In this document: piece by piece, positions 3,935 to 56,246 of the stretch
How positions within the stretch are numbered: the stretch's first letter is position 1
Layout of the letters: the number at the start of each line of letters is the position of its first letter
DNA from: Thermoanaerobaculia bacterium
GTDB lineage: Bacteria > Acidobacteriota > Thermoanaerobaculia > Multivoradales > JAIOJS01
NCBI GenBank assembly: GCA_030429235.1
Contig: JAUIDB010000010.1
Span: forward strand, 13,334-77,333
Reading direction: 5' to 3'
DNA: 64,000 nt
The notes under the pieces: generated by a model
The model's input: only the letters and a program-made list of their open reading frames with translations
Told to the model about the DNA's origin: nothing
Database searches by the model: none
Program-made: the position numbers and the translations under genes

Positions 3935-3950
3935 TGGCACGTCAGTTGCT
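3935..3950 (+). promoter_or_regulatory. Sigma-54 (RpoN) -24/-12 promoter candidate upstream of the Kelch-like gene
   Basis: TGGCACG-tcag-TTGCT matches the TGGCACG-N4-TTGC(A/T) consensus with correct GG-to-GC spacing. It sits ~123 nt upstream of the ATG at 4073 on the same strand. Confidence 0.55.
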
Positions 3951-4072
3951 CCTAGGACGATCGAAGCGCGCTGATCAGAAGGATGGTCCTCCACCGCGCG
4001 GACGCATCGATCCGATGCTCACACCAAGTTGTGCGGTGACCAAGAACGAATTGCTAACGAAGGGGAACAAAT

Positions 4073-5392: not shown

Positions 5393-5685
5393 TTCCGGCC
5401 CCTTCGCTTCAGTTGGCGAGCAAGACCACAGTAGGCCAGGGCGTCCTACTGTGGTCTTGGGCCTGATGATCGAGACTCTCTATCCAGGACCAGAGCTCCT
5501 TGGCTCGCCCGAAGTCGTACTGGGGCACCGGCGTCGGAGCCGGGCGCGTTCTTTGGGCGACGTTTCGGTCGCGATGAGCTTCGGTTTTGGGAGTAAGAAC
5601 AGGCGACGATCGTGTCACCGGAAGTGGCTGCAGGTCATAGCATGGCCAAACTAGGACCGAGCTGGATCATCACTCCTTGGGTTCG

Positions 5686-7619: not shown

Positions 7620-7684
7620 CCGATCTCCTTCTTCCGAGGCCTTCTCGGGCGGCCTTCACAAAACAACTCGTGGGGCCATGGATC

Positions 7685-7700
7685 TGCAAGGCCCGGGCCA
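7685..7700 (-). promoter_or_regulatory. Sigma-54 -24/-12 promoter candidate for the coiled-coil/ankyrin operon
   Basis: The minus strand reads TGGCCC-gggcc-TTGCA, ~65 nt upstream of the ATG at 7619. GG and GC spacing is correct, but the match sits in a GC-palindromic context and could be chance. Confidence 0.35.
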
Positions 7701-7820
7701 AGCCCTCCCGGAGGCCTGGGTATGTCTGGACGCGATTTCCGGCGCGACCCCGAGTGCAAGCAGGTGAAGAGACTGGCTGTGGACGTTGCTAAGCTAGTGT
7801 CTACCCGTGTCTCTCGGAAG

Positions 7821-10577: not shown

Positions 10578-10638
10578 GTAGCGACTGTGCTATTCTGAGC
10601 GCACTTTCCGATCCGAGAAGAAGGGGGAGGCCTCACGC

Positions 10639-12414
10639 ATGCTGCGTTTTGTCGCCCGGAACGAGGGCCAGGAGCGTCGATTTCCGATCGCGGCCGATGG
10701 CGTGTGGACCGTAGGCTCGGCGATCGAGTGCGAACTCTCTGTCCCCTTCGACGGGGTCTCGCGGCGGCATGCCAGCCTCGAGCGCCGGGGAAGCCGAGTC
10801 TGGCTCACGGATTGTGGTTCCAAGAACGGCCTCAGGGTGGAGGGGCGGGTCGAGGCGCAGATCGAACTGCTGCCAGGGATTCGGGTAGACCTCGGTGGCA
10901 CGGTGGTCGAGATCGAAGAGGCAGCGTCGTCGGATACACGATTCGCGGTCGAGCTGCGGCGTTCGTCGAGCGTGGCTTCTCGACTGCGCACCAGTACGGC
11001 GGGAGCGATGGCCGGCGACGGACGTTCTTCACCCGCTGCCGCGCTCGCCTTCGTTCGGCGGTTCGAGCGAGCGTCGCTCCAACCGGGCTCGGAACTCTGG
11101 TCGCGACTCGTCGCCGAGACTCTGGAGATCCTCGAGGCCGAAACCGTGGCGGTGCTGCAGCGGGTTCCCGGGGAGCCTCGCGAGGTGTTGGAACAGTGCT
11201 GGGGCAGGCACCGGGTGCCAGGAGCCGAGGTAGAGGATCCGTGGAGCGCGGCCCAGCTCTCGGCCGAACTGGAAGGGGAATCGGCCAGAATCGTGGCCAT
11301 CCTGGGCCAGGGGGCCAAGGTCGATCGCTGGAAGGAGGACTTCTTCTCCTACCTGGCGACCCGCTGGCAGGAGCAGCGTCACGACCCTCCCGCTCCTCGC
11401 GCCCAGCCGGCCCAGGTCGAGCCGGAACGAGGCCCCGTGGTTCTCGGGCGCTCCGCCGCCATGGTAGAGGTCGAAACGCTGGCTCGGGCCGCGGCCGAGA
11501 GTGGTCTCAACGTCGTGCTCCTCGGCGAGACGGGGACCGGCAAGGAGGTTCTCTCACGCTTCATCCATCGTCTGCGTGCCACCGGGAAGGGTGAGCTGGT
11601 AGCGATCAACTGCGCTGCGATTCCCTCCGAACTCCTCGAAGCCGAACTCTTTGGCGTTGCCAGCCGAGTGGCGACCGGCGTAGATCCCCGCGAGGGGCTC
11701 TTCGTGCGCGCCCACGGGGGAACCCTTCTCCTGGACGAGATTGGCGAGATGCCCTACACGCTGCAGGCGAAACTGCTGCGAGCGCTCCAGGAGCGGGAGG
11801 TCATGCCGGTGGGAGGGCGACGGCCGATGCCGGTCGATCTTCGAGTCATCTCGACGACGCACCGTCCCCTGGCTCGGCTCGTGGCCGAGAAGAAGTTTCG
11901 CGCTGATCTCTACTACCGACTCCGCGGACTCGAGATCTGGCTTCCACCCCTCCGAGAGCGACTCGAAGACATTCCGGAGTTCGCCACTCTCTTTGCCCAG
12001 AGAGCAGCCCGTGCTTCGGGAAAGCGGGTCCGCGGGATCACCGAGCGTGCGCTGCGGCTTCTTACCTGCCACCGCTGGCCCGGCAACGTGCGGGAACTCG
12101 AGACCGACATGGAACGCGCTGTGGCGTTGTGTGCCGACGGAGGCAGCATCGACTCGCGGCTCTTCTCCCACCTGGATCCAGTCGCGGGACGACCTAGTTC
12201 CGTCTCGGTGCTCGAAGCCCCGACCTCGAGGGCCGTGGCGCCCAAGGCTGGCCACTCTACGGTCACACTGCGGGAGGAACTCGACGCTACCGAGCGCGAG
12301 CGAATCCGACGAGAGCTGGCGCTTTCGGGCGGCAACAAGTCGGAGGCCGCTCGAAGGCTCGGGGTGACCTGGAATGGGCTGGTGATGAAGATGAAGCGAT
12401 TGGGGTTACGGTAG
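10639..12414 (+). CDS. Sigma-54-dependent transcriptional activator (bEBP) with an N-terminal FHA domain and C-terminal Fis-type HTH
   Basis: ATG with a GGGGGAGG RBS. The FHA core is 'VGSAIECELSVPFDGVSRRHASLERRGSRVWLTDCGSKNGLRVEG'. The AAA+ sigma-54 interaction domain has a 'LLGETGTGKE' Walker A, 'GGTLLLDEIGEM', and 'FRADLYYRL'. The HTH is 'GNKSEAARRLGVTWNGLVMKMKRLG'. Confidence 0.85.
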   Translation: MLRFVARNEGQERRFPIAADGVWTVGSAIECELSVPFDGVSRRHASLERRGSRVWLTDCGSKNGLRVEGRVEAQIELLPGIRVDLGGTVVEIEEAASSDTRFAVELRRSSSVASRLRTSTAGAMAGDGRSSPAAALAFVRRFERASLQPGSELWSRLVAETLEILEAETVAVLQRVPGEPREVLEQCWGRHRVPGAEVEDPWSAAQLSAELEGESARIVAILGQGAKVDRWKEDFFSYLATRWQEQRHDPPAPRAQPAQVEPERGPVVLGRSAAMVEVETLARAAAESGLNVVLLGETGTGKEVLSRFIHRLRATGKGELVAINCAAIPSELLEAELFGVASRVATGVDPREGLFVRAHGGTLLLDEIGEMPYTLQAKLLRALQEREVMPVGGRRPMPVDLRVISTTHRPLARLVAEKKFRADLYYRLRGLEIWLPPLRERLEDIPEFATLFAQRAARASGKRVRGITERALRLLTCHRWPGNVRELETDMERAVALCADGGSIDSRLFSHLDPVAGRPSSVSVLEAPTSRAVAPKAGHSTVTLREELDATERERIRRELALSGGNKSEAARRLGVTWNGLVMKMKRLGLR

Positions 12415-35304: not shown

Positions 35305-35844
35305 CTATCGATTCTCCAGGTGTTGTCTCAGTCGGTTCAGGCCGCTCCGAACCCTCGACTTGAGGGTGCCGAGAGGGAGCTCGAGACGGCGCGCCGTCTC
35401 CTCGTAGGTCAGCCCGCCGAAGTAGGCGAGCTCGAGGGCGCTGCGCTGCCCGTCGTCCAGCTGACCGAGAGCCTGTACCACAGCGAGACGGGTCTCGAGA
35501 GAGAGCCGCAAGGGTGGTTGGATCGGCTCCGATTCCAAGGCGCTGGTGGGACGACGTCCCTGGTAGCGCAGGCGATCGAACCACTTGTTGCGGGCGATGG
35601 TGAAGAGCCAGCCGGCGGCGACTCCGCGCCGGGCATCGAAGGTCGTGGCTCGGTCCCAGACGGCGAGAAAGACGTCCTGGAGCAGGTCGTCGACGTCAGT
35701 CTTCGCTGCACCGAGGCTGCTCAGGTAGGCGGCGATGCGACCGCCGTACCGCTCGTAGAAGGTCGCAAAGGCGTGGCGGTCGCCGCTGGCGACGCGTCGC
35801 AGCAGCTCCTGGTCATCGATCGTCGGTGTGGGCAAGGGAATCAC
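35305..35844 (-). CDS. ECF (sigma-70 family, group IV) RNA polymerase sigma factor
   Basis: Region 2 is 'DDLLQDVFLAVWDRATTFDARRGVAAGWLFTIARNKWFDRLR'. Region 4 is 'ELAYFGGLTYEETARRLELPLGTLKSRVRSGLNRLR'. GTG start. Confidence 0.85.
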   Translation of the reverse strand: MIPLPTPTIDDQELLRRVASGDRHAFATFYERYGGRIAAYLSSLGAAKTDVDDLLQDVFLAVWDRATTFDARRGVAAGWLFTIARNKWFDRLRYQGRRPTSALESEPIQPPLRLSLETRLAVVQALGQLDDGQRSALELAYFGGLTYEETARRLELPLGTLKSRVRSGLNRLRQHLENR

Positions 35845-36020
35845 AGTATGGCATCTCCGAGGGCCACAAAGTCGCTGCTTTCGGCAGGCTTGTCGATCCG
35901 TCCTACGTCGGCGGGGTGGATTTGGATGAAGTCATCTATCGCGGGCATCGTGGCGTAGACCTCCATGAAGCCACCGATCCACCGCGTGCGCCGCGCACCA
36001 TCTTCAAGGAGTTCCTGCCG

Positions 36021-37448
36021 ATGCTCTATCGTTTGTTTCGTAGAATGTTTCTCGCTCTGGTCTCGATCTCGCTCCTCGCTGCCGGCGCGTCGGCGAGCAC
36101 CCATCGAGGCCCGACCGTCGTCCCGACCGCGGAGGGTCAGATCGGGGAGACACCCGGGGTGGACGACCGGATCCTGGGGCCCCGCTTCGAGTCGATCCGA
36201 GGCCAGGCCGGCGAGGTCCTGTTGGGGAGCAGCGTGCTCTTCGGAGGGGTGATGCCGCCGCCGCCGGCCTTCGACTTCCTGACGGATCGGCTGCACGGCG
36301 CCAGCAATCCGGTACCGATCACCAGTGCCACGAGCTCCTTCCTGACGGTGCCGATGCAGTCTCCGGCCTCGGATCGGCGGCGCGCGGCCAGTGGGCTCGG
36401 TGACTTCGTGGCCTTCAGTTTCGCCGTCGACGGCTCATTGCCCCAGACGATGACGGTTCGGATCGCCACCTTCGACGAAGACGGGACGACGCTGGCCTCG
36501 GTGCCGGTGGCGGTCGATGTCCCGACGTTCAGCGTTCCGGACCCCTTGTTCACCAAGACCGGCGTAGCGGTCGACGACCAGGGTCGGGCTACCGTCGTCT
36601 TCACCCAATTCGACTCCGGGATTCCTACGGTGCGCGGTCAGCGGGTGAGTGTAGTGACGGGAGCCCCGATCGGTGGGTCGTTCCCGATCGGACCCGCGGC
36701 TCAGGCGAACCCTGACGTCGCTCTGCTCGATCCGGCGGGCGATCGACTGATCGTGGCCTCCAACCGCTTCACCAATCCCCCGGTGCTGGTCGGCAATATC
36801 GTCGACTTCTCCTCGGGCAGCCCCGTGGTCTTGCCGGAGTTCACGATCCCCAATACCCCGGCCAGTTTCGGCAACTTACTCACCGATGTTGCCGCAGACC
36901 CGGCCACCGGTACCTCCACCGTGGTCTGGGATCAGTTGACCGGCGTGCTCGGCAACCCGGCCGACGTGCGCGCCCGGCGCTTCGACGCCATGGGCAACCC
37001 CATCGGTGGCGACTTCCAGGTCAACACGCTCGATGCCAACGCGCAGGGCCAGGCGGCGGTGGCCTACGGACCGAACGGCAACTCGGCCATCATCTGGGCG
37101 GGAGATCCCGCCGCACCGCAGGGTCCCGAGGATCTCGACGTGTTCGGCCAGGCCTACGACGCCGACGGCAATCCGATCGGCGGCGAGGTGCCGGTGAACA
37201 CGTTCACGACCAACACCCAGGACCGGCCGACGGTTCGGTTTCTACCAGAGCCGGACGCGCAGGGTCGGTCCCAGTTCGCCGTCGCCTGGCGCGACACCGG
37301 GGACTCCACGGGGGCAACTCCGCGCGGCACCGGTCAGAGCTACCGCTGCTTCTCGATCGAAGGTCTGGAGGATCCTACGGAGATCTTCGCCGACGGCTTC
37401 GAGTCCGGGGACACGACATCATGGTCCGAGACGCAGCCCGGGTCATAG
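36021..37448 (+). CDS. Secreted hypothetical protein with a C-terminal FADGFESGDTTSW tail
   Basis: ATG at 36021 with an AAGGAG RBS and a Sec signal 'MLYRLFRRMFLALVSISLLAAGASAS'. No recognisable domain. It ends ...IFADGFESGDTTSWSETQPGS. Confidence 0.65.
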   Translation: MLYRLFRRMFLALVSISLLAAGASASTHRGPTVVPTAEGQIGETPGVDDRILGPRFESIRGQAGEVLLGSSVLFGGVMPPPPAFDFLTDRLHGASNPVPITSATSSFLTVPMQSPASDRRRAASGLGDFVAFSFAVDGSLPQTMTVRIATFDEDGTTLASVPVAVDVPTFSVPDPLFTKTGVAVDDQGRATVVFTQFDSGIPTVRGQRVSVVTGAPIGGSFPIGPAAQANPDVALLDPAGDRLIVASNRFTNPPVLVGNIVDFSSGSPVVLPEFTIPNTPASFGNLLTDVAADPATGTSTVVWDQLTGVLGNPADVRARRFDAMGNPIGGDFQVNTLDANAQGQAAVAYGPNGNSAIIWAGDPAAPQGPEDLDVFGQAYDADGNPIGGEVPVNTFTTNTQDRPTVRFLPEPDAQGRSQFAVAWRDTGDSTGATPRGTGQSYRCFSIEGLEDPTEIFADGFESGDTTSWSETQPGS

Positions 37449-37493
37449 CTTCGGAAACCAGAGTCTTACCCGAGAGCAACGGCGATGACCGGT

Positions 37494-38888
37494 CTAGGTC
37501 TGGTCGTCCTGCTCCGGTCGGGCAATGCCGAGACTGTTCATCTTCTGATGGAGATGGGTCCTCTGCAGTTCGAGCAGGCGGGCGGCAGCGGCCACGTTCC
37601 AGCCCGTGCTGGCGAGGGCGCGTCGGATGTGGCGGGCCTCGGCGATCTCCTTGAACCGGCGAAAGGGGAGTACGGGGCCGTCGAAGGGGTCGTCGCCATC
37701 GGCTCCGCTCTCAGAGGTCCGGGGATCGAGCATCTCGACCGGTAGCTGCTCGGGAGTGACGGGGTCGGTGCCAAAGACGACGAGCCGCTCGGTCAGGTTT
37801 TCGAGTTCGCGAACGTTGCCGGGCCACGGGTACTGTTCGAGGATCGGATAGACGGCCTCGGTGGCGGCGAGTTGGCGCACGCGGTGGCGAGTCCAGGCCC
37901 GACGGAGAAAGTGGTCGAAGAGGAGCCGGATGTCTCCGGAGCGCTGGCGCAGCGGAGGGACTTCGATCGGCAGGTGGGCGAGGCGGAAGTACAGGTCCTG
38001 TCGGAAGGACTGGTTCCGGATGCCCTCCTCCAGTTGGGCGTGGGTGGCGGCGAGGACCCGCACGTCGACCTCTCGGTCGCGGGTCTCGCCGATGCGGCGG
38101 ACGCGGCCGTCCTCGAGAACCCTGAGGAGGCGGGACTGTAACCGGTAGTCCATGTCGCCGATCTCGTCGAGGAAGAGGGTCCCGCCGTGAGCCTCTTCGA
38201 AAAGGCCCCGTTTGTCGCTGGCGGCGCCGGTGAACGCTCCCTTGACGTGGCCGAAGAGCTCGTCCTCGACCAGATCCTGCGGGATCGCGGCGCAGTTGAG
38301 TTTGATGAAGGGTTGGCGCGCCCGTGGGCTGCCGCGATGGATGGCGTCGGCCACGAGCTCCTTGCCGGTACCACTCTCGCCGAGGATGAGGACCCGACCC
38401 TCGGTCGGGGCCGCTTTGGCGATCGCCTCGCGGAGGGCCAGCATGGCCGGCGACTCGCCGATCAGTTCCGACTGGCCGCGCAGCTCGGACTCGAGGTCCT
38501 GGACCCGCGTTCTCAGGCTGGAGTGTTCGAGGGTGTTCTCGATCGATCGGCGGAGGCGCTCGGTACTGAACGGCTTCTCGATGAAGTCGTGGACGCCGAG
38601 CTTGAGGGCCTCGACCGTCTCGGCGATCGAGGCCTCCCCGGAAACGATGATCGTCGGCGGGAGACGATCCGACTCGGCCAGGCGTCGGATCAACTCGACG
38701 CCGCTCAGGCCGGGCAAACGCACGTCGACCAGCATCAGGCCCGGAGGGTTGTCGGGTCGGGAGTCGAGCCATTCCAGGGCCGCCTCGGCGGTGTCGGTGG
38801 CCGCGGCCCGGTGTCCCGCCTCTTTGAGCTGGAAGAGCAGGTTGGCGCGAATCCTCGGATCGTCCTCGACGACGAGAACCTCGATCAT
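37494..38888 (-). CDS. NtrC-family sigma-54-dependent response regulator (REC plus AAA+ plus Fis HTH)
   Basis: The REC domain has the phospho-acceptor in 'LMLVDVRLPGLSG'. 'ILGESGTGKE' and 'GAFTGA'/'ELFGH' are present. The HTH is 'GWNVAAAARLLELQRTHLHQKMNSLGI'. A 4-nt overlap with the upstream kinase. Confidence 0.85.
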   Translation of the reverse strand: MIEVLVVEDDPRIRANLLFQLKEAGHRAAATDTAEAALEWLDSRPDNPPGLMLVDVRLPGLSGVELIRRLAESDRLPPTIIVSGEASIAETVEALKLGVHDFIEKPFSTERLRRSIENTLEHSSLRTRVQDLESELRGQSELIGESPAMLALREAIAKAAPTEGRVLILGESGTGKELVADAIHRGSPRARQPFIKLNCAAIPQDLVEDELFGHVKGAFTGAASDKRGLFEEAHGGTLFLDEIGDMDYRLQSRLLRVLEDGRVRRIGETRDREVDVRVLAATHAQLEEGIRNQSFRQDLYFRLAHLPIEVPPLRQRSGDIRLLFDHFLRRAWTRHRVRQLAATEAVYPILEQYPWPGNVRELENLTERLVVFGTDPVTPEQLPVEMLDPRTSESGADGDDPFDGPVLPFRRFKEIAEARHIRRALASTGWNVAAAARLLELQRTHLHQKMNSLGIARPEQDDQT

Positions 38889-40114
38889 TCGGTACTCCGT
38901 GCGGACGGCGCCTCGGGTTCGGGCGGCGGCAGGGTGAGCTGGAAGGTGGCGCCGCCGGTCGAGCTCGAAACCAGTCGAAGGTCGCCACCGTGGTCGAGGA
39001 GGATCTTCTTGGAGATCGCCAGACCGAGTCCCATCCCCTCGCCGACGTTCCGGGTCGTCGTGTAGGGCTGGAAGAGGCTGTCACTCACCTGGGCGGCGAT
39101 GCCGGGGCCGTCATCGGCCACGTCGACCTGCACCTCGTGGTCGAGGCAGCGAACCTCCAGGGTCACCGACACCGAGCCCGGGGCCGCGGCGGCGGAACTG
39201 TTATCCCAGAGGTTCACCAGCACTTGACGCATCATGTCGCGGTCGATGTTGACGAAAGCGGGTCCGCTGGTGACGCACTGGAGGGAGAGGTTGTCCCAGG
39301 CATCCTGGTAGATCTCGGCGAGTTCGGCCAGGAGACTCGACAGGTCGACGCGCTGTAGCTTCGGCCGCGGCAGCCGGGCGAAGGAGCTGAAGCGGTGGGT
39401 GAACTCGGTGAGTCGATCCAGTTCCTGCCGGGCCCCGTCGAGGAACTCGTCGATCTCGGCGGCAGTGGCGCGAGGGTTCTTCTGCAGTGTGTTGCCCAGG
39501 CGAGCCAATTCGAGGCGCAAACCGGTGATGGGAGAGCGCATCTCGTGGGCGTGGCGTCGCGCTGCTTCCTGCCAGGCGGACAGGTTTTCGAGCATGGCCA
39601 GTCGTTGGCGGTCACCGGCCATGCGGCGCGAGGTCTCCTCGATCATGGCTGCGATCCTACCGAGGACGCCCCGCCCGCTCTCGCCCGTGTCGAGGACCGG
39701 TCGGCCTTCGGCGAGCCGACCGAGCGACTCTCGGAGCCGCTCGAGGCGGCGCTCGCGGTTCGTCTGGCGCCAAACCAGGCCGCCGGCTACCACCAGGAGG
39801 CAGAGGGCGAAGAGGGTGAGCCCGAGTGCCTCGGATCGCGCCACCAGGTCGGCTCGACTGCGCTCCAAGACCTGGAGTCGGTGCAGCGTCGATTCGATCC
39901 GATCGAATCGTTCGCGGTACTCGGCCGCTCGCTCCGGATCCAGCTCCGCCAGCCGCTTCTGGTCGTCGAGCGAGCCGGACAGTCGATCGAGTACCTCGGG
40001 GTGGGCGCCGAAGGCGAAGGAAGCCTGCGAGAGCTGTCGCTGTAGGACCTGAAAGAGGAGGGCCGCGAGCAGGATGGCTCCGAGCGTGGCGACGATCGGG
40101 GTGCGAAGCTTCAT
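38885..40114 (-). CDS. Sensor histidine kinase (HisKA plus HATPase_c), NtrY-like
   Basis: The H-box is 'HEMRSPITGLRLELARL'. G-boxes are 'DDGPGI' and 'GMGLGLAISKKILLDHGGDL'. An N-terminal TM helix is present. Start chosen at the ATG at 40114 just before the TM (40147 is also possible). Confidence 0.8.
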   Translation of the reverse strand: MKLRTPIVATLGAILLAALLFQVLQRQLSQASFAFGAHPEVLDRLSGSLDDQKRLAELDPERAAEYRERFDRIESTLHRLQVLERSRADLVARSEALGLTLFALCLLVVAGGLVWRQTNRERRLERLRESLGRLAEGRPVLDTGESGRGVLGRIAAMIEETSRRMAGDRQRLAMLENLSAWQEAARRHAHEMRSPITGLRLELARLGNTLQKNPRATAAEIDEFLDGARQELDRLTEFTHRFSSFARLPRPKLQRVDLSSLLAELAEIYQDAWDNLSLQCVTSGPAFVNIDRDMMRQVLVNLWDNSSAAAAPGSVSVTLEVRCLDHEVQVDVADDGPGIAAQVSDSLFQPYTTTRNVGEGMGLGLAISKKILLDHGGDLRLVSSSTGGATFQLTLPPPEPEAPSARSTE

Positions 40115-40800
40115 GGGCGCGGTGCCTTTTCGAGGCGCAGTGTCCATTCCAGATGCACCATGGGTCGACGGCGGATCGAGGTGCTGAGGAGTCCGTCGAA
40201 GACGCGGTCGAGAGAGCTCTCGCTGCGCTCGAGACGATCCTTGGACTCCGATTCGGCCGTACGACTGGAACGTACCGACTCGGCAAACCAACGCTGGGTC
40301 TCGCGCTGTTCGGCCGCCGAGAAGGGAACCACCTGGAGGCGCACCCGGAGGGCGGGAGGCGGGTCGTGGGCAAGAGCAGCCGCGCACAGTGGGACCTCGA
40401 GGTCGGACCACCAGCCCCGGAGGTCGGCGGGGTCGGCCAGGGTTCGGCGGGTGGTGCTGTCCGGAGTTCGGAAGGTGGTGACCTGAAACTGCTCCTCCCA
40501 GAGCTCGTACCGAATCTGGATCGTGGTCCGGGCCAGGGAGGCCTTGCGGTTCAGGGCCAACTCGAACCTGAAGTGCGTGGTCAGACCGGTCTGGAGGTGT
40601 CGCTCGATCTCGGGGTCATCCAGGATTTCGGGCAGCTGCGAGAGGAGCACACACTCCTCATTGGACCGAGAGAGCCGCGGCGGGTCGGCGGCCAAGGAGG
40701 AGCCCAAACAGAGGATCAAGCAGAGACCCCAGAATCCCCGAGTCGCGGGGCGACGAGGCAGGACCGACGACGGGGGCACCCGGTAGAGCAAAGGTCGCAC
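40111..40800 (-). CDS. Periplasmic DUF4390-like protein (the type commonly encoded just upstream of NtrY-like kinases)
   Basis: GTG start with a signal peptide. Its size (~230 aa) and position (overlapping the kinase start by 4 nt) fit DUF4390. The family assignment is from context and general features only. Confidence 0.45.
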   Translation of the reverse strand: MRPLLYRVPPSSVLPRRPATRGFWGLCLILCLGSSLAADPPRLSRSNEECVLLSQLPEILDDPEIERHLQTGLTTHFRFELALNRKASLARTTIQIRYELWEEQFQVTTFRTPDSTTRRTLADPADLRGWWSDLEVPLCAAALAHDPPPALRVRLQVVPFSAAEQRETQRWFAESVRSSRTAESESKDRLERSESSLDRVFDGLLSTSIRRRPMVHLEWTLRLEKAPRP

Positions 40801-40803
40801 CGG

Positions 40804-42336
40804 CTACTGCTTCCCTCGATCCAGGTAGGCCAACCGCAAGGAGACCACGCCCCATGGGCTGCGGAACGACAGACCGCTGCTGACCTCGAACCCCCGTTCG
40901 AAGTCGGGCGCAGCGGGAGAACCGGCGAACGAACTGCCGTCGAACAGGGTCAGGGCCTGGGTCCAACGCAGTTCCCGGCTCCCGTGCCGACGGCTGGAGT
41001 GTAGGAGTAGGCTGTGTTGGAGCGAAGCCTGCAGTCGCCACACCGTCGAACGACTCGATCCGAGGCCCAGTCCCGAAGGCGCGACGTCGTCCACCTTGCG
41101 TTCTCCGGCCAGGATCCGACCGGAGACACCCAGCGACTGCCGGGCACCGAACGAGCGGTGGAGTTCCCCTCCCAGTGAGAGGCCGAGCAGGGACGAGTCC
41201 ATCTCCGCCAGCGGGGTCGTGGAGTCGAGGAAGGAGCGAATCGGGCCGAGCCGCGCGGTCAGGTGCTGCCACTCGATTCCCGCCTGCAAGCGGGCCCCGT
41301 CGGTGGGGAAGAGGGGGTCGTCGACCGAGTCGAATCGCCACGCCAACTCCAGCCGCTGGTCCTCACGGTCCTCGAAGCCCAGGGTGCTCTCGACCACCGG
41401 AGCGACGGCGGACCGACGGATCCCGGAATCGCTCCGCCGCGCTTCACCGCGGAGGAGCAGGGAGTGGTTGCGCCGCAGGGGGACTCCAAGGTCGAGCCGG
41501 AACCGGGTCGTGCGTTCGCCGGCGCTCCAGGTCGAGGCCGTCGGGTCGAGGACGTCGTGGAGCTGAGTACGGCACTCACTGCCGGCCGCCGGGACCGCGT
41601 CGTGGCCGATGGCCGACTCGAGAGAATCCACGATCTGCTGCCGCACGTCCTCGCAGTGCACGGTCGAGACGCTGAGGGTGGCCAGGCCCCCGCGGCCGAA
41701 AGGGTCGTAGCGGCTGACCCCCGCGGTGAGTTCGCCATCCCCACTGACGACGCCGAACGCGACGAGGCTCGGGCCGAGAGCGAAACGCCGACCGGCGAAC
41801 AGGGTCGTTCCGTCGACCCGATCGGTGGTGGCCAGCCCGTCGACCGAGACGTCGTGGGCCCACCAGGTGGCCTCGGAATACAGGCCGAAGACCCACCTTC
41901 GGACCTCTTCGACCCGAATCTGCAGGTGGTACAGACCGCGGGAGGAACCCTTCTCGAGCGAGAACTCGGCGTCCAGGACCAGGGGGAGCCGGACGATGCG
42001 GGCCATGGCCTGGCCGAGCTGCGACTCGCTGTAGGCGTGGCCCTCCTCCAACTGTGCCGTGTTGAGGAGGCTGGTCGTCGACAGCAGGGAGATGCCGTCG
42101 ACGGCGATCGTCTCGATCGCGAACCGAGGGCCCTCCGGGGGCGGCGGGGGCGAGGCGGCGTGCGTGGCCGGCGGGGGAGGCTGGGCGCGTCCCGTGGAGG
42201 GGCCCACCGCGGATCCCAGGAGGAGAGCGAGGCCGATCAGGACGACCGGCCGCCTCCAGCTTCCGCGGAGCCGGTTGCGGTGTGGCGGAGCGGGCCGCGG
42301 GATTCCCTGCACAAGGCCTGGTCGTCGGGTTCTCAT
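40804..42336 (-). CDS. POTRA-domain outer-membrane beta-barrel protein (ShlB/FhaC/HecB TpsB-like or Omp85-family)
   Basis: Signal peptide, then a POTRA-like segment 'FAIETIAVDGISLL...LEEGHAYSESQLGQAMARIVRLPLVLDAEFSLEKGSSRGLYHLQIRVEEV'. The remainder is rich in predicted beta-strands. It lies 3 nt from the downstream DUF4390 gene. Confidence 0.5.
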   Translation of the reverse strand: MRTRRPGLVQGIPRPAPPHRNRLRGSWRRPVVLIGLALLLGSAVGPSTGRAQPPPPATHAASPPPPPEGPRFAIETIAVDGISLLSTTSLLNTAQLEEGHAYSESQLGQAMARIVRLPLVLDAEFSLEKGSSRGLYHLQIRVEEVRRWVFGLYSEATWWAHDVSVDGLATTDRVDGTTLFAGRRFALGPSLVAFGVVSGDGELTAGVSRYDPFGRGGLATLSVSTVHCEDVRQQIVDSLESAIGHDAVPAAGSECRTQLHDVLDPTASTWSAGERTTRFRLDLGVPLRRNHSLLLRGEARRSDSGIRRSAVAPVVESTLGFEDREDQRLELAWRFDSVDDPLFPTDGARLQAGIEWQHLTARLGPIRSFLDSTTPLAEMDSSLLGLSLGGELHRSFGARQSLGVSGRILAGERKVDDVAPSGLGLGSSRSTVWRLQASLQHSLLLHSSRRHGSRELRWTQALTLFDGSSFAGSPAAPDFERGFEVSSGLSFRSPWGVVSLRLAYLDRGKQ

Positions 42337-42412
42337 GGAGTCCGGACAGAGCCTCTCACAGGTTGCGCGGTGGCGCCAGGACGGCCCGCTCTCGCCACAG
42401 GGTCCATCCCGC

Positions 42413-43060
42413 CTAGAAGCGGTACCCGAGTCCGAGACTCAGGGAGTCGAAGTCGATGTCGACGGTTCCGTAGTCGACCAGCAGGTCGAGGCGGGGCGTC
42501 AGGTCGACGCGAGCGCCGGCACCGAGGAGTAGCTCGCTTCCAGTCAGCCGACCGAGGTACCCGAAGGTCGGTTGCACCGCCGAGATACGCTCTTCGTAAT
42601 AGCCCAGACCAACCCGTCCGAAGAGCGTAGTGCGGCCGAAATGGGTCTGCGGCACGAAGGCAAAGGTGAACAGTTCGAGGTCGGCCTCGACTTTGGCCAG
42701 CAGTTCGATGCAGAGAACCAGGGGGCCGGGAAAGCAGGCGGAACCCCAGCCCTCGAGATCATCGGCCCTTTGGTAGCCAACCTCGATGGCGAGGTTGCGG
42801 TGCAGTTCGAACCCGAAGACGACGGCTGGGGAGACCGCCTCGTTGTCGAAGTCCCAAGCGTGTAGGCCTTCGTAGGTGCGGTCGAAGGCCGCCAGTCCGC
42901 CCTTGAAGTCGACGTAGAAACGTTCCTCGGCCGCGCTTGGCGCCGCCAGGGCGAAGAGCACGCAGAGCCAGGCGAGGCCGGGAAGGAGCCTTCGAGACGT
43001 CGCAGGGGACCGGCGGGTCGTGGGGGCTGGGAGGTGGTTGCGGAGGAGGGAATGGTGCAT
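42413..43060 (-). CDS. Small outer-membrane beta-barrel protein (OmpA-N/OmpW-like)
   Basis: ATG at 43060, signal peptide, alternating amphipathic strands, and a C-terminal 'GLGYRF' OMP signature ending in Phe. Confidence 0.6.
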   Translation of the reverse strand: MHHSLLRNHLPAPTTRRSPATSRRLLPGLAWLCVLFALAAPSAAEERFYVDFKGGLAAFDRTYEGLHAWDFDNEAVSPAVVFGFELHRNLAIEVGYQRADDLEGWGSACFPGPLVLCIELLAKVEADLELFTFAFVPQTHFGRTTLFGRVGLGYYEERISAVQPTFGYLGRLTGSELLLGAGARVDLTPRLDLLVDYGTVDIDFDSLSLGLGYRF

Positions 43061-43309
43061 GGTGTCTCCTGGTCGGTGGAAAGGGTTCGATGCCTCTGAC
43101 GACAGCAATGACCTTGCCAACCTCGGGGGCGGAGGGCTCGGGTGGAGCGATCCTGGCCGATCCGAAGGTTGAGAAGAATCGGGGCCGGTCGGCGCCTCGT
43201 GTCCGAGAGGGGCGAGTCGTTCGTAGCCACCGACGGTGGTGTCTGGGAAACCAGACGGTTCCGCACCATGGAGCCCCGGTCACTGCCCGTTGGAAACGGA
43301 GGAATCGTC

Positions 43310-43325
43310 TGGCCTCGGGATTGCA
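43310..43325 (+). promoter_or_regulatory. Sigma-54 -24/-12 promoter candidate upstream of the OMP gene at 43353
   Basis: TGGCCT-cggga-TTGCA has correct GG and GC spacing and ends ~28 nt before the ATG. Confidence 0.35.
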
Positions 43326-43352
43326 CCGGCTTCCGAACCAGGAGGATCTCTG

Positions 43353-43904
43353 ATGACCAAACTTCTCTGTTCGACCCTTCTCCTACTCGTCGCTGGACCG
43401 TTGGCGGCTCTGCCGGATCTCTGGATCGGAGCTGGGGTGGGTAGTTCTCCCACGGCCGGTACCCAGGGCGCCAGCTTCCCCTCGGTCACCGAGACCGACG
43501 GGCCGAGCTGGCGGCTGAGCGCCGGCGCCGAACTGGGACGTTTTTTCGGTCTGGAACTTGCCTACCGGGACTTGGCGCGCCAGCTCTGTTGCGAGGGGTT
43601 CGCGGACCTCGGGTTCGATCTCTCGGTTCGAGGGCTCTCGGCGGCGCTCTCGAGTCGACTCCCCCTGAACCGCTTCTCGCTCTTCGCCAAGATCGGTGTC
43701 TTCACCTGGGAGGAGGAGGGCAACTTGCTGACGATCGCCGGGCCCCGCGACTTCGCCGCCGACGGCACCGACCTGTTGATCGGCGCGGGGATCGACTACG
43801 AACTCTGGCGCGACCTTGGAGTCCGAGCGGATTGGGAACGTCTCGAGTTCAACGATCTTTCGAGCGACCTCTTCTGGATCTCGGTGCAGTGGCGCTTCGA
43901 GTGA
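43353..43904 (+). CDS. Small outer-membrane beta-barrel protein
   Basis: ATG with a GGAGGA RBS and a signal peptide. The C-terminal 'ISVQWRFE' has an aromatic residue near the terminus, and the pattern is amphipathic beta-strands. Confidence 0.6.
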   Translation: MTKLLCSTLLLLVAGPLAALPDLWIGAGVGSSPTAGTQGASFPSVTETDGPSWRLSAGAELGRFFGLELAYRDLARQLCCEGFADLGFDLSVRGLSAALSSRLPLNRFSLFAKIGVFTWEEEGNLLTIAGPRDFAADGTDLLIGAGIDYELWRDLGVRADWERLEFNDLSSDLFWISVQWRFE

Positions 43905-43999
43905 GATGCACCGGGGCCTGCCATCCGACGGGCTCCTGAGTCTCGGGGACCGGCGAAGCGGGTCGTCAGGCAGCGCAGGCGTCGGTGCGACCACTCGAC

Positions 44000-45385
44000 T
44001 CAGCCGAGGAGGCCGTCCGGATTCCAGGTGCGGCGCACCCGGTGGAGTCGCTCGAGGTCGACTCCTCCGCTGGCGCCGCGCCGCTCGCTTTCGTCTGAGT
44101 CCTCGGTCAGAAAGTTGACGTAGCCACCACGCTGCGATCGGGCGTGGACCTGGGTCCAGAAGTCCCGAACCCAACGGAGGTTGGCCTCGTCTTCCGACGG
44201 GTCGGTCCAGGCGGTGGCGATCACGACGATGTACCGAGCATCGCGGTGTCCGGCGGCCGAGTGCTGGGCCGAAACCCGGGCGACCGCGCCCCCCAGCTCG
44301 AAGACCTTGATGTTGGCGGCGGGGGAGGGCAGCTGCTGGAGCGCGCGGAGCAGAATCGCCTGCAGCTCGTCATCGAGTTCGCCGATGTACTCGGACTTCC
44401 AGTAGTTGCGCCGCCCGTCGGGCTCGCCGGCGTCGAACATCGCCTGGAACTGTCCGAACCGGCGGGGTTCGAAGAGGTCGGCGGCCAGGCCGGGCCCGAT
44501 GCGGAGCGGCGCGAGGTCGGTGGCAGCCTGCTCGAGATCGTCGCCACTATGGCAGCCGATGGTGGCAGCGCAGGGCTGGCCGTGGAGGTCGGCTTCCAGG
44601 AACGGGGCGGCCGGAGCCGCGCCGAGCTTCAATAGGCAGGTCAGTTCCTCGGGCCGGTTGCGCTCCCGCGAGCGGAACCGTCGAAATGCCGCTTCCGCGT
44701 CGCGGTGGAAGACCACTCCGGCCAGCACCTCGTGGTCGAGGCGGTGCGACCGGAAGTGGAAGGTGGTGACGACGCCTAGACCGCCGCCGCCGCCCCGGAG
44801 CGCCCAGAGGAGCTCGGGGTGGCTGTCGGCGTCGACGCGCACGGCTTCACCGGTGGCGGTGACCAGGTCGACCGCCTCGAGGTGGTCGCAGGTCAAGCCC
44901 CAGCGGCGGGAGAGCCAGCCGAAACCACCCCCGAGGGTGAGGCCGGCGATCCCGGTGGCCGAGACGATGCCGCTGGGGACGACGCGGCCGTGCGGCAGCG
45001 TGCCGGCGTCGAGGTCTCCCAAGGTGGCCCCCGGTTCCACGACGACGCGCTCACCTTCGATCCGCACCCCGCGGCGGTGGCCCTGGTAGACCACCACTCC
45101 TCCGTCAGCGAGGGCCCGTCCACCGATATTGTGTCCGCCACCCCGGACGCTGAGCGGCAAAGCATGGGTCCGGGCGAAGCGAACACACTCCTGCACGTCG
45201 GAGACGTCGTCGCAGCGCACGATGAGTTGCGGCTGACGCTCGATCATGGCGTTCCAGAGGGTGCATGCCGTGGGGTAGCCCGGATCCTCTGGGGTCAGGG
45301 CCTCGCCGCCCAGACGCGAACGCAGGGCCTCCAGGCCCTCCAGGGGGTGTGACGTCAAGGGGCTCGTAGGGGGTGTTTCGCGCAT
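44000..45385 (-). CDS. FAD-linked oxidase (PCMH-type FAD-binding plus BBE-like C-terminal domain)
   Basis: 'RVRGGGHNIGGRAL' is the FAD-binding signature. ATG at 45385 with a GAGGAG RBS. The ORF opens further upstream. Confidence 0.75.
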   Translation of the reverse strand: MRETPPTSPLTSHPLEGLEALRSRLGGEALTPEDPGYPTACTLWNAMIERQPQLIVRCDDVSDVQECVRFARTHALPLSVRGGGHNIGGRALADGGVVVYQGHRRGVRIEGERVVVEPGATLGDLDAGTLPHGRVVPSGIVSATGIAGLTLGGGFGWLSRRWGLTCDHLEAVDLVTATGEAVRVDADSHPELLWALRGGGGGLGVVTTFHFRSHRLDHEVLAGVVFHRDAEAAFRRFRSRERNRPEELTCLLKLGAAPAAPFLEADLHGQPCAATIGCHSGDDLEQAATDLAPLRIGPGLAADLFEPRRFGQFQAMFDAGEPDGRRNYWKSEYIGELDDELQAILLRALQQLPSPAANIKVFELGGAVARVSAQHSAAGHRDARYIVVIATAWTDPSEDEANLRWVRDFWTQVHARSQRGGYVNFLTEDSDESERRGASGGVDLERLHRVRRTWNPDGLLG

Positions 45386-54808: not shown

Positions 54809-54861
54809 CTTTGAGATAGGGCCACTTCGGAGGCCGCCGATCGACAAGGACACGACACGCT

Positions 54862-55449
54862 TTGGATGACCTGACACTCGTAGAACGTTGCCGACTCGGC
54901 GACGACATCGCCTGGGAGGCACTCGTGCGGCGCTATCAGCACCGGGTGTTCGGGGTCGCCTTGCACTATCTACGGAATCGAGAGGATGCCCAGGACGCAG
55001 CCCAGGAGATCTTCGTCAAGGTCTACCGCGGGCTGGGGAAACTGGAGCCGGGGCGCGCCTTTCTGCCCTGGTTGCTGCGCGTCGCCCGCAACGGTTGCAT
55101 CGACCGCATTCGACGGCGCAAGGTCCGAACCCCCGAGATCGAAGTGCCAGTCGAAGATTGCTACGACCTGTCGGCCGACGATCCCACTCCCGAGGACCGT
55201 TCACTACTCAGCGGGCGGCAGGCTCTGCTGTACCAGGCGTTGGGCCAGATCAGCGACAACCATCGAGAGCTGATCCTGCTCAAGGAGATCCAGGAGATGG
55301 AGATTCGTGAGATCGCGGATCTGCTCGACCTGCCGCTGGGAACGGTCAAGTCCCGTTCCAACCGCGCCCGGCTGGAACTCGCACGGGCGGTGCGCTCGCT
55401 CGAAACGGGCCAGGCACGCAACCCGGCGGTACAGGAGGTGGCACCATGA
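54862..55449 (+). CDS. ECF RNA polymerase sigma factor
   Basis: Region 2 is 'DAQDAAQEIFVKVYRGLGKLEPGRAFLPWLLRVARNGCIDRIRRR'. Region 4 is 'ILLKEIQEMEIREIADLLDLPLGTVKSRSNRARLEL'. It uses a non-ATG start as given by the ORF track. Confidence 0.85.
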   Translation: MDDLTLVERCRLGDDIAWEALVRRYQHRVFGVALHYLRNREDAQDAAQEIFVKVYRGLGKLEPGRAFLPWLLRVARNGCIDRIRRRKVRTPEIEVPVEDCYDLSADDPTPEDRSLLSGRQALLYQALGQISDNHRELILLKEIQEMEIREIADLLDLPLGTVKSRSNRARLELARAVRSLETGQARNPAVQEVAP

Positions 55450-56246
55450 TCTGCTCGGATTTCGAGGGGCGTCTGGAGGCACTCGCAGAGGGCCGCCTCG
55501 GCGACCGTGCCGCGCAGGACTGCCGAGAGCACGCGGCCCGTTGCTCGGCTTGTTCCGAGTTGCTCTTCCTAGCGGGTCTCGGGCCCACCGAGGGGTCCGT
55601 GGTGGATCTCACGCCGGCGGTACTGGCGGCCACCAGTGGTTCCCTCTGCGAAGCGGTCCAGGGGCAACTGGCGGACGTCGAGTCTGGGGTCGGAGTTGCC
55701 GGAGCGGCCACCTACGACGAGGCGTTGGCGTCGCACCTGGACCACTGCCCGGAGTGCGAGGCGATCGCCGGTGTGCTCCACGGGTTGCCGCGGGAACTCC
55801 CCGCGCTGGCCGAGGTCCGGGCGCCGTACGGTTTCGTCGCCGCCGTACTCCGGCGCACCCTGCCGCCGACGACTCGCTGGCGACGGCGTTGCGCCACCGC
55901 GTGGCAGGATTGGGTCCGGCGGCCACGCTTCGCTACCGAACTGGCCTACGCGCTCACCGTCGCGCTATTGATCCTGGTCGGCAATCCGGCCACCCCCCTG
56001 TCGGCGATGTCGGATACGGCGCGTCGGGCGCTGCCGCGCGGCGAAGACCTGGCCCAACGAGTCGCTCCCCTGGAGAGCAAGCTCGAGCAGTATGGGGAGT
56101 CGATCGGCCACTCGCCGGCGGTGCGGGTGTTCGTGGCGGGGGCGGAGTGGAGTCAGGACCGGGTGGACGATCTGTGGCAGAGCACGTCGAGGGCCCTGTC
56201 CGACCTCGAGGCCGGCCTGACCGAGCTGTTCGGTCCCGGCCGCTAA
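55446..56246 (+). CDS. Anti-sigma factor with an N-terminal zf-HC2 zinc finger
   Basis: 'CSDFEGRLEALAEGRL...CREHAARCSAC' follows the zf-HC2 pattern. The ATGA overlaps the sigma gene. It has a TM segment and a periplasmic C-terminal part. Confidence 0.7.
   Translation: MICSDFEGRLEALAEGRLGDRAAQDCREHAARCSACSELLFLAGLGPTEGSVVDLTPAVLAATSGSLCEAVQGQLADVESGVGVAGAATYDEALASHLDHCPECEAIAGVLHGLPRELPALAEVRAPYGFVAAVLRRTLPPTTRWRRRCATAWQDWVRRPRFATELAYALTVALLILVGNPATPLSAMSDTARRALPRGEDLAQRVAPLESKLEQYGESIGHSPAVRVFVAGAEWSQDRVDDLWQSTSRALSDLEAGLTELFGPGR

Follow-up and report, generated by a model that had tools for sequence, protein, structure and literature searches.

A conserved operon of an Omp85-family barrel, a DUF4390-like protein and a two-component system, with its own predicted sigma-54 promoter, points to a possible, so far undescribed signalling module across the envelope of Acidobacteriota

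Why should the gene of an outer-membrane barrel be joined, in one transcription unit, to the genes of a two-component system? The known roles of Omp85 proteins are those of insertases and translocases, and they are not known to act as sensors. The 64-kb stretch of acidobacterial DNA analysed here (hereafter the window) contains such an arrangement, and the conserved operon, with its promoter and a palindrome, suggests an undescribed signalling module that spans the cell envelope. The features of the locus, with the evidence for each, are the following.

37494..38888, minus strand: response regulator, 464 aa, last gene of the operon (Pfam, ATGA overlap, ortholog census)
38885..40114, minus strand: histidine kinase, 409 aa (Pfam, hydropathy scan, 75-sequence alignment)
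40111..40800, minus strand: DUF4390-like, predicted periplasmic protein, 229 aa (remote profile homology)
40804..42336, minus strand: Omp85-superfamily outer-membrane protein, 510 aa (Pfam, AF2 model)
42413..43060, minus strand: small outer-membrane beta-barrel protein of the OMP_b-brl / OmpA_membrane type, 215 aa, first gene of the operon here (Pfam)
43104..43119, minus strand: sigma-54 type -24/-12 element TGGCAAGGTCATTGCT, probable promoter of the five-gene operon
43241..43256, no strand assigned: palindrome GTCTGGGAAACCAGAC, probable upstream activator site for the response regulator
43310..43325, plus strand: sigma-54 type -24/-12 element TGGCCTCGGGATTGCA
43353..43904, plus strand: second small outer-membrane beta-barrel protein, 183 aa, divergent (Pfam OMP_b-brl, 4.9e-13)

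The compact layout described in the first-pass annotation is borne out by direct reading of the minus strand (junctions of -4, -4 and +3 nt). The regulator and kinase genes overlap by ATGA, the gene of the 229-aa protein overlaps the kinase start by another ATGA, and the TAG stop of the Omp85-like gene is followed by 3 nt and then by the GTG start of the 229-aa gene. Four genes had been counted, and their order stands; a second -24/-12 element had been overlooked, at 43104-43119 before the minus-strand small outer-membrane protein (OMP) gene. Because of this element, the transcription unit probably consists of five genes rather than four, namely those for the small OMP, the Omp85-like protein, the DUF4390-like protein, the kinase and the regulator. 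The 76-nt gap between the small OMP gene and the barrel gene was searched for an internal promoter, a terminator and an attenuator, and none was found; it showed no unusual structure (z = 0.3), and no sigma-70-like promoter or terminator motifs were found across 37300-44100.

Related loci were collected by an exhaustive profile search, which gave 434 representatives, while word-indexed searches with single proteins returned only 7 and 9 relatives. The census covers 80 species-level genomes, mostly Thermoanaerobaculia, and across them gene order, domain content and the promoter with its palindrome are conserved. The order Omp85-like, DUF4390-like, kinase, regulator is kept in 79/80, 72/74 and 61/67 loci: the first two genes are adjacent in 79 of 80 genomes, where the earlier claim that an Omp85-type gene is welded to the two-component system also holds, and a regulator ortholog adjoins the kinase in 61 of the 67 loci with enough DNA and is missing there in 6. 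The start/stop overlap [AGT]TGA recurs at the stop of the DUF4390-like gene in 72 of 80 loci and at that of the kinase gene in 66 of 71. Genes flanking the conserved cluster are unrelated between genomes. Two more distant relatives (L091 and L092) have the identical four-gene order, and a lineage whose DUF4390 proteins are Pfam-positive (L087 and L089) keeps the triad of Omp85, DUF4390 and kinase genes without the regulator. The Omp85-like and DUF4390-like genes are tandemly duplicated as a pair in one locus (L068), and the module is also found in Thermoanaerobaculum (L033), a genus with a cultured species.

Chance neighbours are contradicted by this synteny, since the adjacency persists in 79 of 80 genomes despite differing flanks, and it is the barrel gene that the promoter serves first. 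It is thus very improbable that the locus holds an ordinary NtrYX-like nitrogen or redox regulator with no functional link to the outer-membrane genes beside it, even though NtrX and NtrC models of NCBIfam are among the best matches of the regulator and DUF4390 genes accompany ntrYX in beta-proteobacteria (PMC13001219). The regulator matches Pfam Sigma54_activat (1e-68), Response_reg (1e-24) and HTH_8 (1.6e-8), and its GAFTGA motif, read in the sequence, is intact, which makes it an NtrC-family sigma-54 enhancer-binding response regulator. Its NCBIfam matches are generic for the NtrC family and all lie under their cut-offs; NtrX reaches 346.9 bits where its cut-off is 600, less than either NtrC or AtoC. 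Pfam matches of the kinase are confined to HisKA and HATPase_c, without HAMP or PAS, and a hydropathy scan of its 409 residues gives two transmembrane segments (about 6-24 and 96-115) and a 70-aa periplasmic stretch. NtrY has a multi-TM N-terminus with HAMP, PAS and HisKA, and the kinase is about half its size. The NtrY/NtrX identity first proposed for the pair was given up on these comparisons. Within the periplasmic stretch, the residues PE..LE.S..DQK.LA..DP..YR.RF are conserved in at least 90% of 75 aligned sequences.

What the regulator controls can be approached through the promoters. The -24/-12 element TGGCCTcgggaTTGCA, which the first-pass annotation had reported before the gene at 43353, is present at 43310..43325, 27 nt before the ATG and with an AGGAGG Shine-Dalgarno sequence between. 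Elements of the form TGGC-N8-TGCW occur 10 times in the window against 2.6 expected, and 1 of 100 shuffles reached 10. The palindrome GTCTG-N6-CAGAC lies between the two divergent sigma-54 promoters, is common to both, and is the sole match in the 64-kb window. The criterion used for a sigma-54 promoter was TGGCAC-N5-TTGCW with GG and GC ten bases apart, a dyad 80-150 nt upstream, and orthologous conservation; by it, the operon has a predicted sigma-54 promoter with an upstream activator site. The 43310 promoter matches the consensus and uses the same dyad, and no ortholog was found by which its conservation could be judged. That the regulator controls neighbouring OMP genes, as had been suggested, fits these cis elements, as both small OMP genes have a -24/-12 element and one palindrome serves the two.

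Among 75 related loci, 59 have a sigma-54 promoter above the 99% control quantile and 16 fall below that threshold; at least 6 of the 16 (L001, L002, L003, L020, L021 and L030) carry extra genes before the Omp85-like gene, with the promoter further upstream, and an equivalent element precedes the first cluster gene in L001, L002 and L003. The motif GTATG-N6-CATAC is found in 37 of 66 upstream regions and in 0 controls, and the more general GTnnG-N6-CnnAC in 59 of 66 loci, where its median position relative to the -24 element is -119; of the control windows, 2.7% contain it. Its half-sites vary symmetrically between clades (GTATG/CATAC, GTCTG/CAGAC and GTTCG/CTGAC-type). The regulator has the recognition helix QRTYLHQ where the half-sites are A-type and QRTHLHQ in five loci of the window's subclade with a C-type half-site, a correlation that rests on one or two evolutionary events and has two exceptions, L034 and L017, with C-type sites yet the Y helix. 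On this sequence evidence, the palindrome at 43241-43256 is a probable upstream activator site for the regulator, and, the conserved promoter target being the operon itself, autoregulation is implied.

Two small OM beta-barrel genes had been noted upstream, and both match Pfam OMP_b-brl; the two proteins share 25% identity over 105 residues. The cluster begins with a small OMP_b-brl gene in the window and in L001, L002, L003, L020, L021 and L091; L003 has two, and L002 also has an M23 peptidase gene. This distribution would suit a specialised insertase, that is, a BamA paralogue that folds the co-transcribed small OMPs while the two-component system adjusts the supply. Most of the 80 loci, however, have no small OMP gene in the cluster and yet keep the other four genes, the universal DUF4390-like gene is left unexplained, and the barrel has one POTRA domain and no conserved RG(F/Y), so that we consider such an insertase a distinctly improbable solution. 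An iterated HMM search led to the rejection of the small OMP genes as a universal part of the module: of these loci, only those of the window's subclade were found to have them in the cluster, and they are, judged by these searches, a subclade-specific addition. No ortholog of the plus-strand gene (43353-43904) was seen in the equivalent position in other loci.

The 510-aa protein matches Pfam Omp85 (PF01103) at 25.8 bits against a cut-off of 24, while POTRA_1 reaches only E = 0.06. Its layout is a signal peptide, a Pro-rich linker, one POTRA domain (about 71-144) and a barrel of about 16 strands; in the AF2 model, which like all structure predictions here is of a single chain, the POTRA is a beta-alpha-alpha-beta-beta unit at 71-144 and the barrel has 15-16 strands. 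The NCBIfam BamA model aligns with residues 68-144 (E 2e-6), and the POTRA is the best-conserved part of the protein (0.69 vs about 0.5). Among its relatives, the L087 barrel matches Pfam Omp85 at 35.6 bits over profile positions 1-301 of 325 and is linked by hhalign (97.3%) to the A1 alignment, of which the window protein is a member, and a Pfam POTRA is above cut-off in L087 and L091. The likeness to BamA, TamA and 'BamA-like' proteins of the superfamily (Heinz and Lithgow 2014, PMC4104836) consists of a POTRA at the N-terminus, a barrel with about 16 strands after it, the Omp85 match and a DDPxFPxxG motif, and BamA proteins are the best structural matches of the barrel. A canonical BamA/TamA paralogue, which would have told against the earlier reading, was nevertheless rejected: the barrel has one POTRA instead of the five of BamA or the three of TamA, it scores 26.4 bits with TIGR03303 against a cut-off of 297, and its family differs in always being encoded with a kinase and a DUF4390-like protein. 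A further difference is a disulfide-type loop between strands 5 and 6 (residues 228-267) with two conserved cysteines. For the loop-6 motif (V/I)RG(F/Y), no RG[FYW] was found at a conserved position in 74 family members, nor any in the L087 protein. An RlFxG...DVP segment of the family is possibly equivalent to this motif.

The barrel had also been labelled TpsB/Omp85-like; the Omp85 half of the label stands and the TpsB half does not. TpsB proteins (FhaC, ShlB, CdiB) likewise belong to the Omp85 superfamily and are encoded beside the gene of a partner protein, but the window barrel has one POTRA instead of two and no Pfam match to ShlB or POTRA_2 at E up to 0.1. In agreement with the earlier observation, a Pfam scan of window ORFs brought up no TpsA-like or TPS-domain gene among those it covered.

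The protein encoded beside the barrel had been called DUF4390-like, a label that holds as remote homology and fails at the Pfam threshold (PF14334, 13.4 bits vs a cut-off of 27, E = 0.054). Only 4 of 150 family members match PF14334, weakly (best E 0.0014). In a search of 5.8 billion sequences, the family profile finds P0195 (E 2.5e-4) and P0196 (E 2.8e-4), which pass PF14334 with 35.5 and 29.3 bits, and hhalign aligns the family with P0196 over 139 columns (96.2%, E 2.6e-9). The linking Pfam-positive DUF4390 protein is also encoded between an Omp85 gene and a kinase gene. By profile comparison, then, the 229-aa protein is a remote homologue of DUF4390. Its layout is an Ig-like beta-sandwich, two C-terminal helices and a final strand, after a putative signal peptide (hydrophobic helix 21-33, then SLAA).

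The pairing of these two genes could be that of a dedicated export pair, in which the barrel, as a translocator or assembly factor in the two-partner style, takes the 229-aa protein to the surface or into the barrel lumen, and the two-component system only regulates the pair or receives reports from the surface protein, as with RcsF. The two genes are 3 nt apart, adjacent in 79 of 80 genomes and duplicated together in L068, the structures most similar to the barrel include FhaC and CdiB, and its superfamily is known for protein translocation and insertion. Against these points stand the single POTRA, the missing ShlB and POTRA_2 matches, the loop-6 result in the 74 family members and the 229-aa protein itself, in which Pfam found no TPS domain. 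Its gene moreover overlaps the kinase gene as tightly as plrP overlaps plrS, and the homologous PlrP acts on its kinase from the periplasm in organisms without an adjoining barrel (PMC13001219). An export pair is accordingly unlikely, though less so than an insertase.

The most likely reading, by analogy, is a self-activating trans-envelope sensor of the PlrP-PlrSR kind to which an outer-membrane component has been added. The one-POTRA barrel would sit in the outer membrane, the DUF4390-like beta-sandwich protein in the periplasm, the kinase with its small conserved periplasmic segment in the inner membrane, and the sigma-54 enhancer-binding regulator in the cytoplasm. In the following scheme, the contacts among the proteins and with DNA, the nature of the signal and the direction in which it travels are all inferred. 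The DUF4390-like protein would act on the periplasmic segment and so set the kinase/phosphatase balance, in the manner of PlrP and PlrS of Bordetella, and the POTRA would bind or release this protein depending on the condition of the outer membrane or of something outside it. The phosphorylated regulator would then bind GTCTG-N6-CAGAC and activate both flanking sigma-54 promoters. Expression of the module would rise as a whole, by positive feedback, and with it, in this organism, that of two small outer-membrane barrels.

This sensor reading is supported by the gene junctions and synteny, the four-gene order in L091 and L092, the triad of L087 and L089, the duplicated pair, the conserved promoter and palindrome with symmetric half-site changes, the recognition helix, GAFTGA and HTH_8 of the regulator, the conservation of the POTRA and of the kinase periplasmic segment, and the genetics of PlrP (PMC13001219). 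It is weakened by the sub-threshold Pfam score of the window protein, the absence from the kinase of the PDC domain of PlrS, the 16 of 75 loci under the promoter threshold, the 6 of 67 without a regulator beside the kinase, the few events and two exceptions behind the helix correlation, and the established roles of Omp85 proteins. We judge the chances to be about even that four proteins, plus a subclade-specific gene, form an envelope-spanning module that switches on its own operon. It is a more tentative proposal, rather less probable, that a two-component system has taken over an Omp85-family barrel as its sensor or anchor in the outer membrane, with the POTRA holding a DUF4390-type periplasmic adaptor that sets the activity of the inner-membrane kinase. 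If true, trans-envelope signalling would gain a new class, and DUF4390 a general role in coupling kinases to the outer membrane; to our knowledge, no other member of the Omp85 family has a role in signalling, as distinct from assembly or secretion. A full-text literature search found no description of such an Omp85/DUF4390/kinase/regulator cluster. The sigma-54 promoter, with a 16-bp dyad at a fixed distance, is defined well enough for direct experimental tests.

The closest known system is PlrP-PlrS-PlrR. The genetic link between DUF4390, in the form of Bordetella PlrP, and an NtrYX-family kinase dates only from 2026; the plrP gene overlaps plrS by 4 bp, PlrP controls the phosphatase activity of PlrS, as judged genetically and for Bordetella only, and PlrS senses it through a PDC domain (PMC13001219). 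Both systems have a secreted DUF4390-related protein of about 200 aa, whose gene lies directly 5' of that of the kinase and shares 4 bp with it, an NtrC-family regulator, and accessory and kinase genes that are almost always co-located (PMC13001219). The relationship of the window protein to DUF4390 is remote (13.4 bits vs 27), and Pfam-positive DUF4390 proteins stood in for PlrP in the comparison. Unlike PlrS, the window kinase has no PDC domain, its periplasmic stretch of 70 aa being helical; the upstream gene is that of an Omp85-type barrel and not rsmB, a sigma-54 promoter and a palindrome are conserved at the operon, and the host, judged by the taxonomy of the relatives, belongs to Acidobacteriota and not Proteobacteria. 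The locus thus extends the DUF4390-kinase partnership to Acidobacteriota, and in at least two lineages, one with Pfam-positive DUF4390, the gene on the other side is always that of a one-POTRA Omp85 barrel, a neighbourhood that yields the testable hypothesis that DUF4390 links a kinase to an outer-membrane protein. The same logic, an outer-membrane component, a periplasmic link and an inner-membrane transducer that controls envelope genes, is followed by RcsF-IgaA-RcsCDB, NlpE-CpxAR and FecA-FecR-FecI. These systems have no sequence relationship to the window module, and their outer-membrane part is a lipoprotein or a TonB-dependent transducer, whereas here it is an Omp85-family barrel and the output is a sigma-54 activator.

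The regulator gene at 37494-38888 is the last of five consecutive genes on the minus strand, with a further small barrel gene diverging from them. Follow-up analysis confirmed the earlier observation and extended it, and bore out part of the interpretation given with it.

Genes of the locus (window coordinates)
42413-43060, minus strand: small outer-membrane barrel gene (Pfam OMP_b-brl), first of the five
40804-42336, minus strand: Omp85-like gene, 510 aa, after a 76-nt gap
40111-40800, minus strand: gene for the 229-aa protein, 3 nt beyond the 510-aa gene
38885-40114, minus strand: kinase gene (HisKA and HATPase_c), ATGA overlap with the 229-aa gene
37494-38888, minus strand: response regulator gene (REC, sigma-54 interaction domain, HTH_8), ATGA overlap with the kinase gene
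43353-43904, plus strand: second small barrel gene, divergent (Pfam OMP_b-brl)

The domains named in the first-pass annotation were backed by Pfam for the operon proteins and for both small barrels. The sigma-54 interaction domain of the regulator was matched at 1e-68 with its GAFTGA motif intact, and the 510-aa protein passed the Omp85 threshold barely (25.8 bits vs. a cut-off of 24). Public NCBI annotation has shorter versions of both genes within 40111-42336 (467 aa, P0008, vs. 510; 179 aa, P0001, vs. 229), whose starts lie beyond the predicted signal peptides; the N-termini of homologues agree with the longer forms, P0197 and P0198. A 540-aa ORF without a Pfam match (35826-37448) is convergent with the regulator gene; it has an internal hydrophobic stretch, a possible signal peptide if the start is a downstream Met, and its C-terminus, FADGFESGDTTSWSETQPGS, resembles a C-terminal sorting tag.

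The sigma-54-type (-24/-12) element noticed earlier was located at 43310-43325 on the plus strand, with an ATG 27 nt downstream and an AGGAGG Shine-Dalgarno sequence between them. A second element that had been missed, TGGCAAGGTCATTGCT (43104-43119, minus strand), precedes the small barrel gene of that strand. The transcription unit, previously drawn with four genes, would most simply comprise five under this predicted promoter, because the small barrel gene has its own upstream element, sigma-70-like promoter and terminator motifs were not found in 37300-44100, and nothing unusual was seen in the folding of the 76-nt gap. A perfect dyad, GTCTGGGAAACCAGAC (43241-43256), the sole such site in the 64 kb, is located between both promoters. 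The earlier idea that the sigma-54 regulator may control neighboring outer-membrane protein genes fits this arrangement, in which divergent -24/-12 elements flank one dyad. Within 43301-43312, the -24 element of the plus-strand promoter is overlapped by a GTCTG half-site (in GGAATCGTCTGG); together with 43251-43262, which lies partly in the dyad and partly next to it, this stretch makes up an inverted repeat of 12 nt, perhaps by chance.

Other regulatory genes and elements were noted in the window. A Ser/Thr protein kinase ORF (7575-10577) is directly followed by a gene for an activator with FHA, sigma-54 AAA+ and HTH_8 domains (10582-12414), and the -24/-12 element TGGCCCGGGCCTTGCA (7685-7700, minus strand) lies in the opposite orientation 66 nt ahead of a coiled-coil gene (6801-7619); 6801-12414 may be a second sigma-54 circuit under kinase-FHA control. 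The near-consensus element TGGCACGTCAGTTGCT (3935-3950, plus strand) is 123 nt ahead of gene 4073-5392, which encodes a secreted-looking protein of 439 aa without a Pfam match, and is positioned just before a lower-GC stretch that includes this gene (GC 0.58-0.60 over 4001-8000). An ECF-type sigma factor gene (54820-55449; Sigma70_r2 and r4_2) overlaps the ORF that comes next (55311-56246).

Single-sequence searches gave the impression that these proteins are very rare, which was overturned by an exhaustive profile search with the 229-aa family that returned 434 representatives at 50% identity. With one genome scanned per species, the family was detected in 147 genomes, nearly all of Acidobacteriota and mostly labelled Thermoanaerobaculia, with a few labelled Holophagae, Holophagales, Candidatus Multivoradales or Deltaproteobacteria. 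Gene order was surveyed by HMM searches over every ORF of 80 loci. The 229-aa homologue is immediately preceded by the Omp85-like gene in 79 of the 80 and immediately followed by the kinase gene in 72 of the 74 with room for it, and the sigma-54 regulator gene comes next in 61/67. The start/stop overlaps are also conserved, since [AGT]TGA occurs at the stop of the 229-aa gene in 72/80 loci and at the kinase stop in 66/71, and the genes flanking the module vary between loci. The proposed welding of the barrel to a two-component unit is borne out by this conserved order. The alternative, an ordinary NtrYX system whose neighbors are there by chance, is contradicted by it and appears highly improbable; the NtrY/NtrX label originally applied was dropped.

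Some clusters depart from this layout. L068 (1739-5788) has the barrel and adaptor (229-aa-type) genes tandemly duplicated as a pair ahead of a single kinase gene, and L038 (4144-6899) has two barrel genes ahead of one adaptor gene. The following sigma-54 regulator is missing from the clusters of L019, L029, L043, L050 and L078. An AAA_21 ATPase gene occupies its position in L019, and the kinase gene was likewise not detected in L078 and L050. L019 and L043 have no strong -24/-12 element, and L078 retains one. In L050 (2107-7236), the adaptor gene is immediately followed by some 4.6 kb, free of N runs, in which both strands are open, with ORFs of 1524 and 1659 codons.

The small barrel gene heads the cluster only in the subclade of the window (the window, L001, L002, L003, L020 and L021), where further envelope genes can be inserted: L003 has an additional small barrel gene, and L002 an M23 peptidase gene. 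It was considered that the Omp85-like protein is an insertase for the small barrels, but this fails on the restricted distribution of their genes and is quite improbable. The AlphaFold2 model of the 510-aa protein (pLDDT 75.7) starts with a signal peptide and a proline-rich linker, which lead into a single POTRA domain (71-144) and 15-16 strands, with strands 5 and 6 joined by a 40-residue loop carrying two conserved cysteines. BamA was ruled out (26 bits vs. a cut-off of 297). The TpsB affinity suggested at first was also rejected: there is a single POTRA, the HMM check for ShlB and POTRA_2 gave no match, and TpsA was absent among the window ORFs scanned. The RG(F/Y) loop-6 motif was not conserved among 74 barrel members. 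Mean top-residue frequency is highest in the POTRA (0.69, vs. about 0.5 in the barrel and 0.25 in the cysteine loop), which fits a putative conserved periplasmic partner.

In the model of the 229-aa protein (pLDDT 77), a signal peptide precedes an Ig-like sandwich, followed by two helices and a final strand, and nothing specific was matched among solved structures. Pfam DUF4390 matches, even weak ones, were obtained for only 4 of 150 family members; the family is therefore unannotated. Though the window protein reaches DUF4390 at only E=0.054, the likeness first noted was supported, as a remote one, through two proteins that pass PF14334, P0195 and P0196 (35.5 and 29.3 bits). Both were retrieved by the family profile at E ~2.5e-4 in a 5.8-billion-sequence search, and hhalign aligned the family with P0196 over 139 columns (96.2% probability, E 2.6e-9). 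Their genes are flanked on one side by a one-POTRA Omp85 gene and on the other by a HAMP kinase gene, which overlaps them by 4 nt at its start; the barrel scores 35.6 bits for PF01103 and 24.2 bits for POTRA, and its POTRA matched an alignment including the window's barrel at 97.3%. The regulator gene is absent from these loci, and no sigma-54 promoter is found nearby. These loci thus keep the barrel, the DUF4390-type protein and the kinase without the regulator, and in the more distant relatives L091 and L092 all four genes are again together; the triad is therefore the invariant core.

The cis elements were examined with a position weight matrix trained on strict matches, with random windows of the same loci as controls. 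In 59/75 loci, the 400 nt upstream of the barrel gene contain a -24/-12 element that scores over the 99% quantile of the controls, typically (T/C/G)GGCA(C/T)-N5-TTGC(C/T); in the subclade with added genes, it precedes the first gene of the cluster, not the barrel gene. When dyads upstream of these promoters were counted without bias, one family only emerged. GTATG-N6-CATAC occurs in 37/66 loci and in 0 control regions, and the remaining clades carry GTCTG-N6-CAGAC or GT(T/A)CG-N6-CTGAC-type dyads, the half-sites changing jointly. The general form GTnnG-N6-CnnAC was found within -200 to -40 in 59/66 loci (2.7% of control windows), at a median of -119 relative to the -24 element. The predicted recognition helix of the regulator, QRTYLHQ, accompanies A-type half-sites; QRTHLHQ occurs in five loci of the window's subclade, each with at least one C-type half-site, and L002 of this subclade retains the Y helix and A-type half-sites. 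This apparent tracking of half-site type by the helix is suggestive only, with few independent events and the exceptions L034 and L017. The architecture of the module and its cis elements are direct observations.

We favor, at roughly even odds, the reading that these genes form a self-activating, envelope-spanning signaling module. In such a module, a cue at the outer membrane would be relayed to the kinase through the POTRA of the barrel and the adaptor, and the regulator would occupy the dyad and activate the sigma-54 promoter(s). The kinase has two transmembrane segments and, in the periplasm, a 70-residue stretch where many positions are at least 90% conserved across 75 sequences. The protein contacts and the signal are what we infer here. 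The main rival, a role for the barrel in exporting or anchoring the adaptor that would resemble two-partner secretion or RcsF, is rather unlikely.

A full-text literature search for Omp85 with a sigma-54/kinase operon found no such cluster described, and functional work on DUF4390 was found in a single paper (PMC13001219). PlrP of Bordetella was reported to be a secreted DUF4390 protein, with a 4-bp overlap between its gene and plrS, and by genetics it acts as a third component restraining PlrS phosphatase activity via the PlrS PDC domain; the DUF4390 survey in that work covered Proteobacteria, where the upstream neighbor is rsmB (PMC13001219). Adaptor-kinase coupling is common to the Bordetella system and the signaling module proposed here, whereas the present module differs in its kinase type, its outer-membrane partner, its predicted sigma-54 autoregulatory promoter and its phylum.
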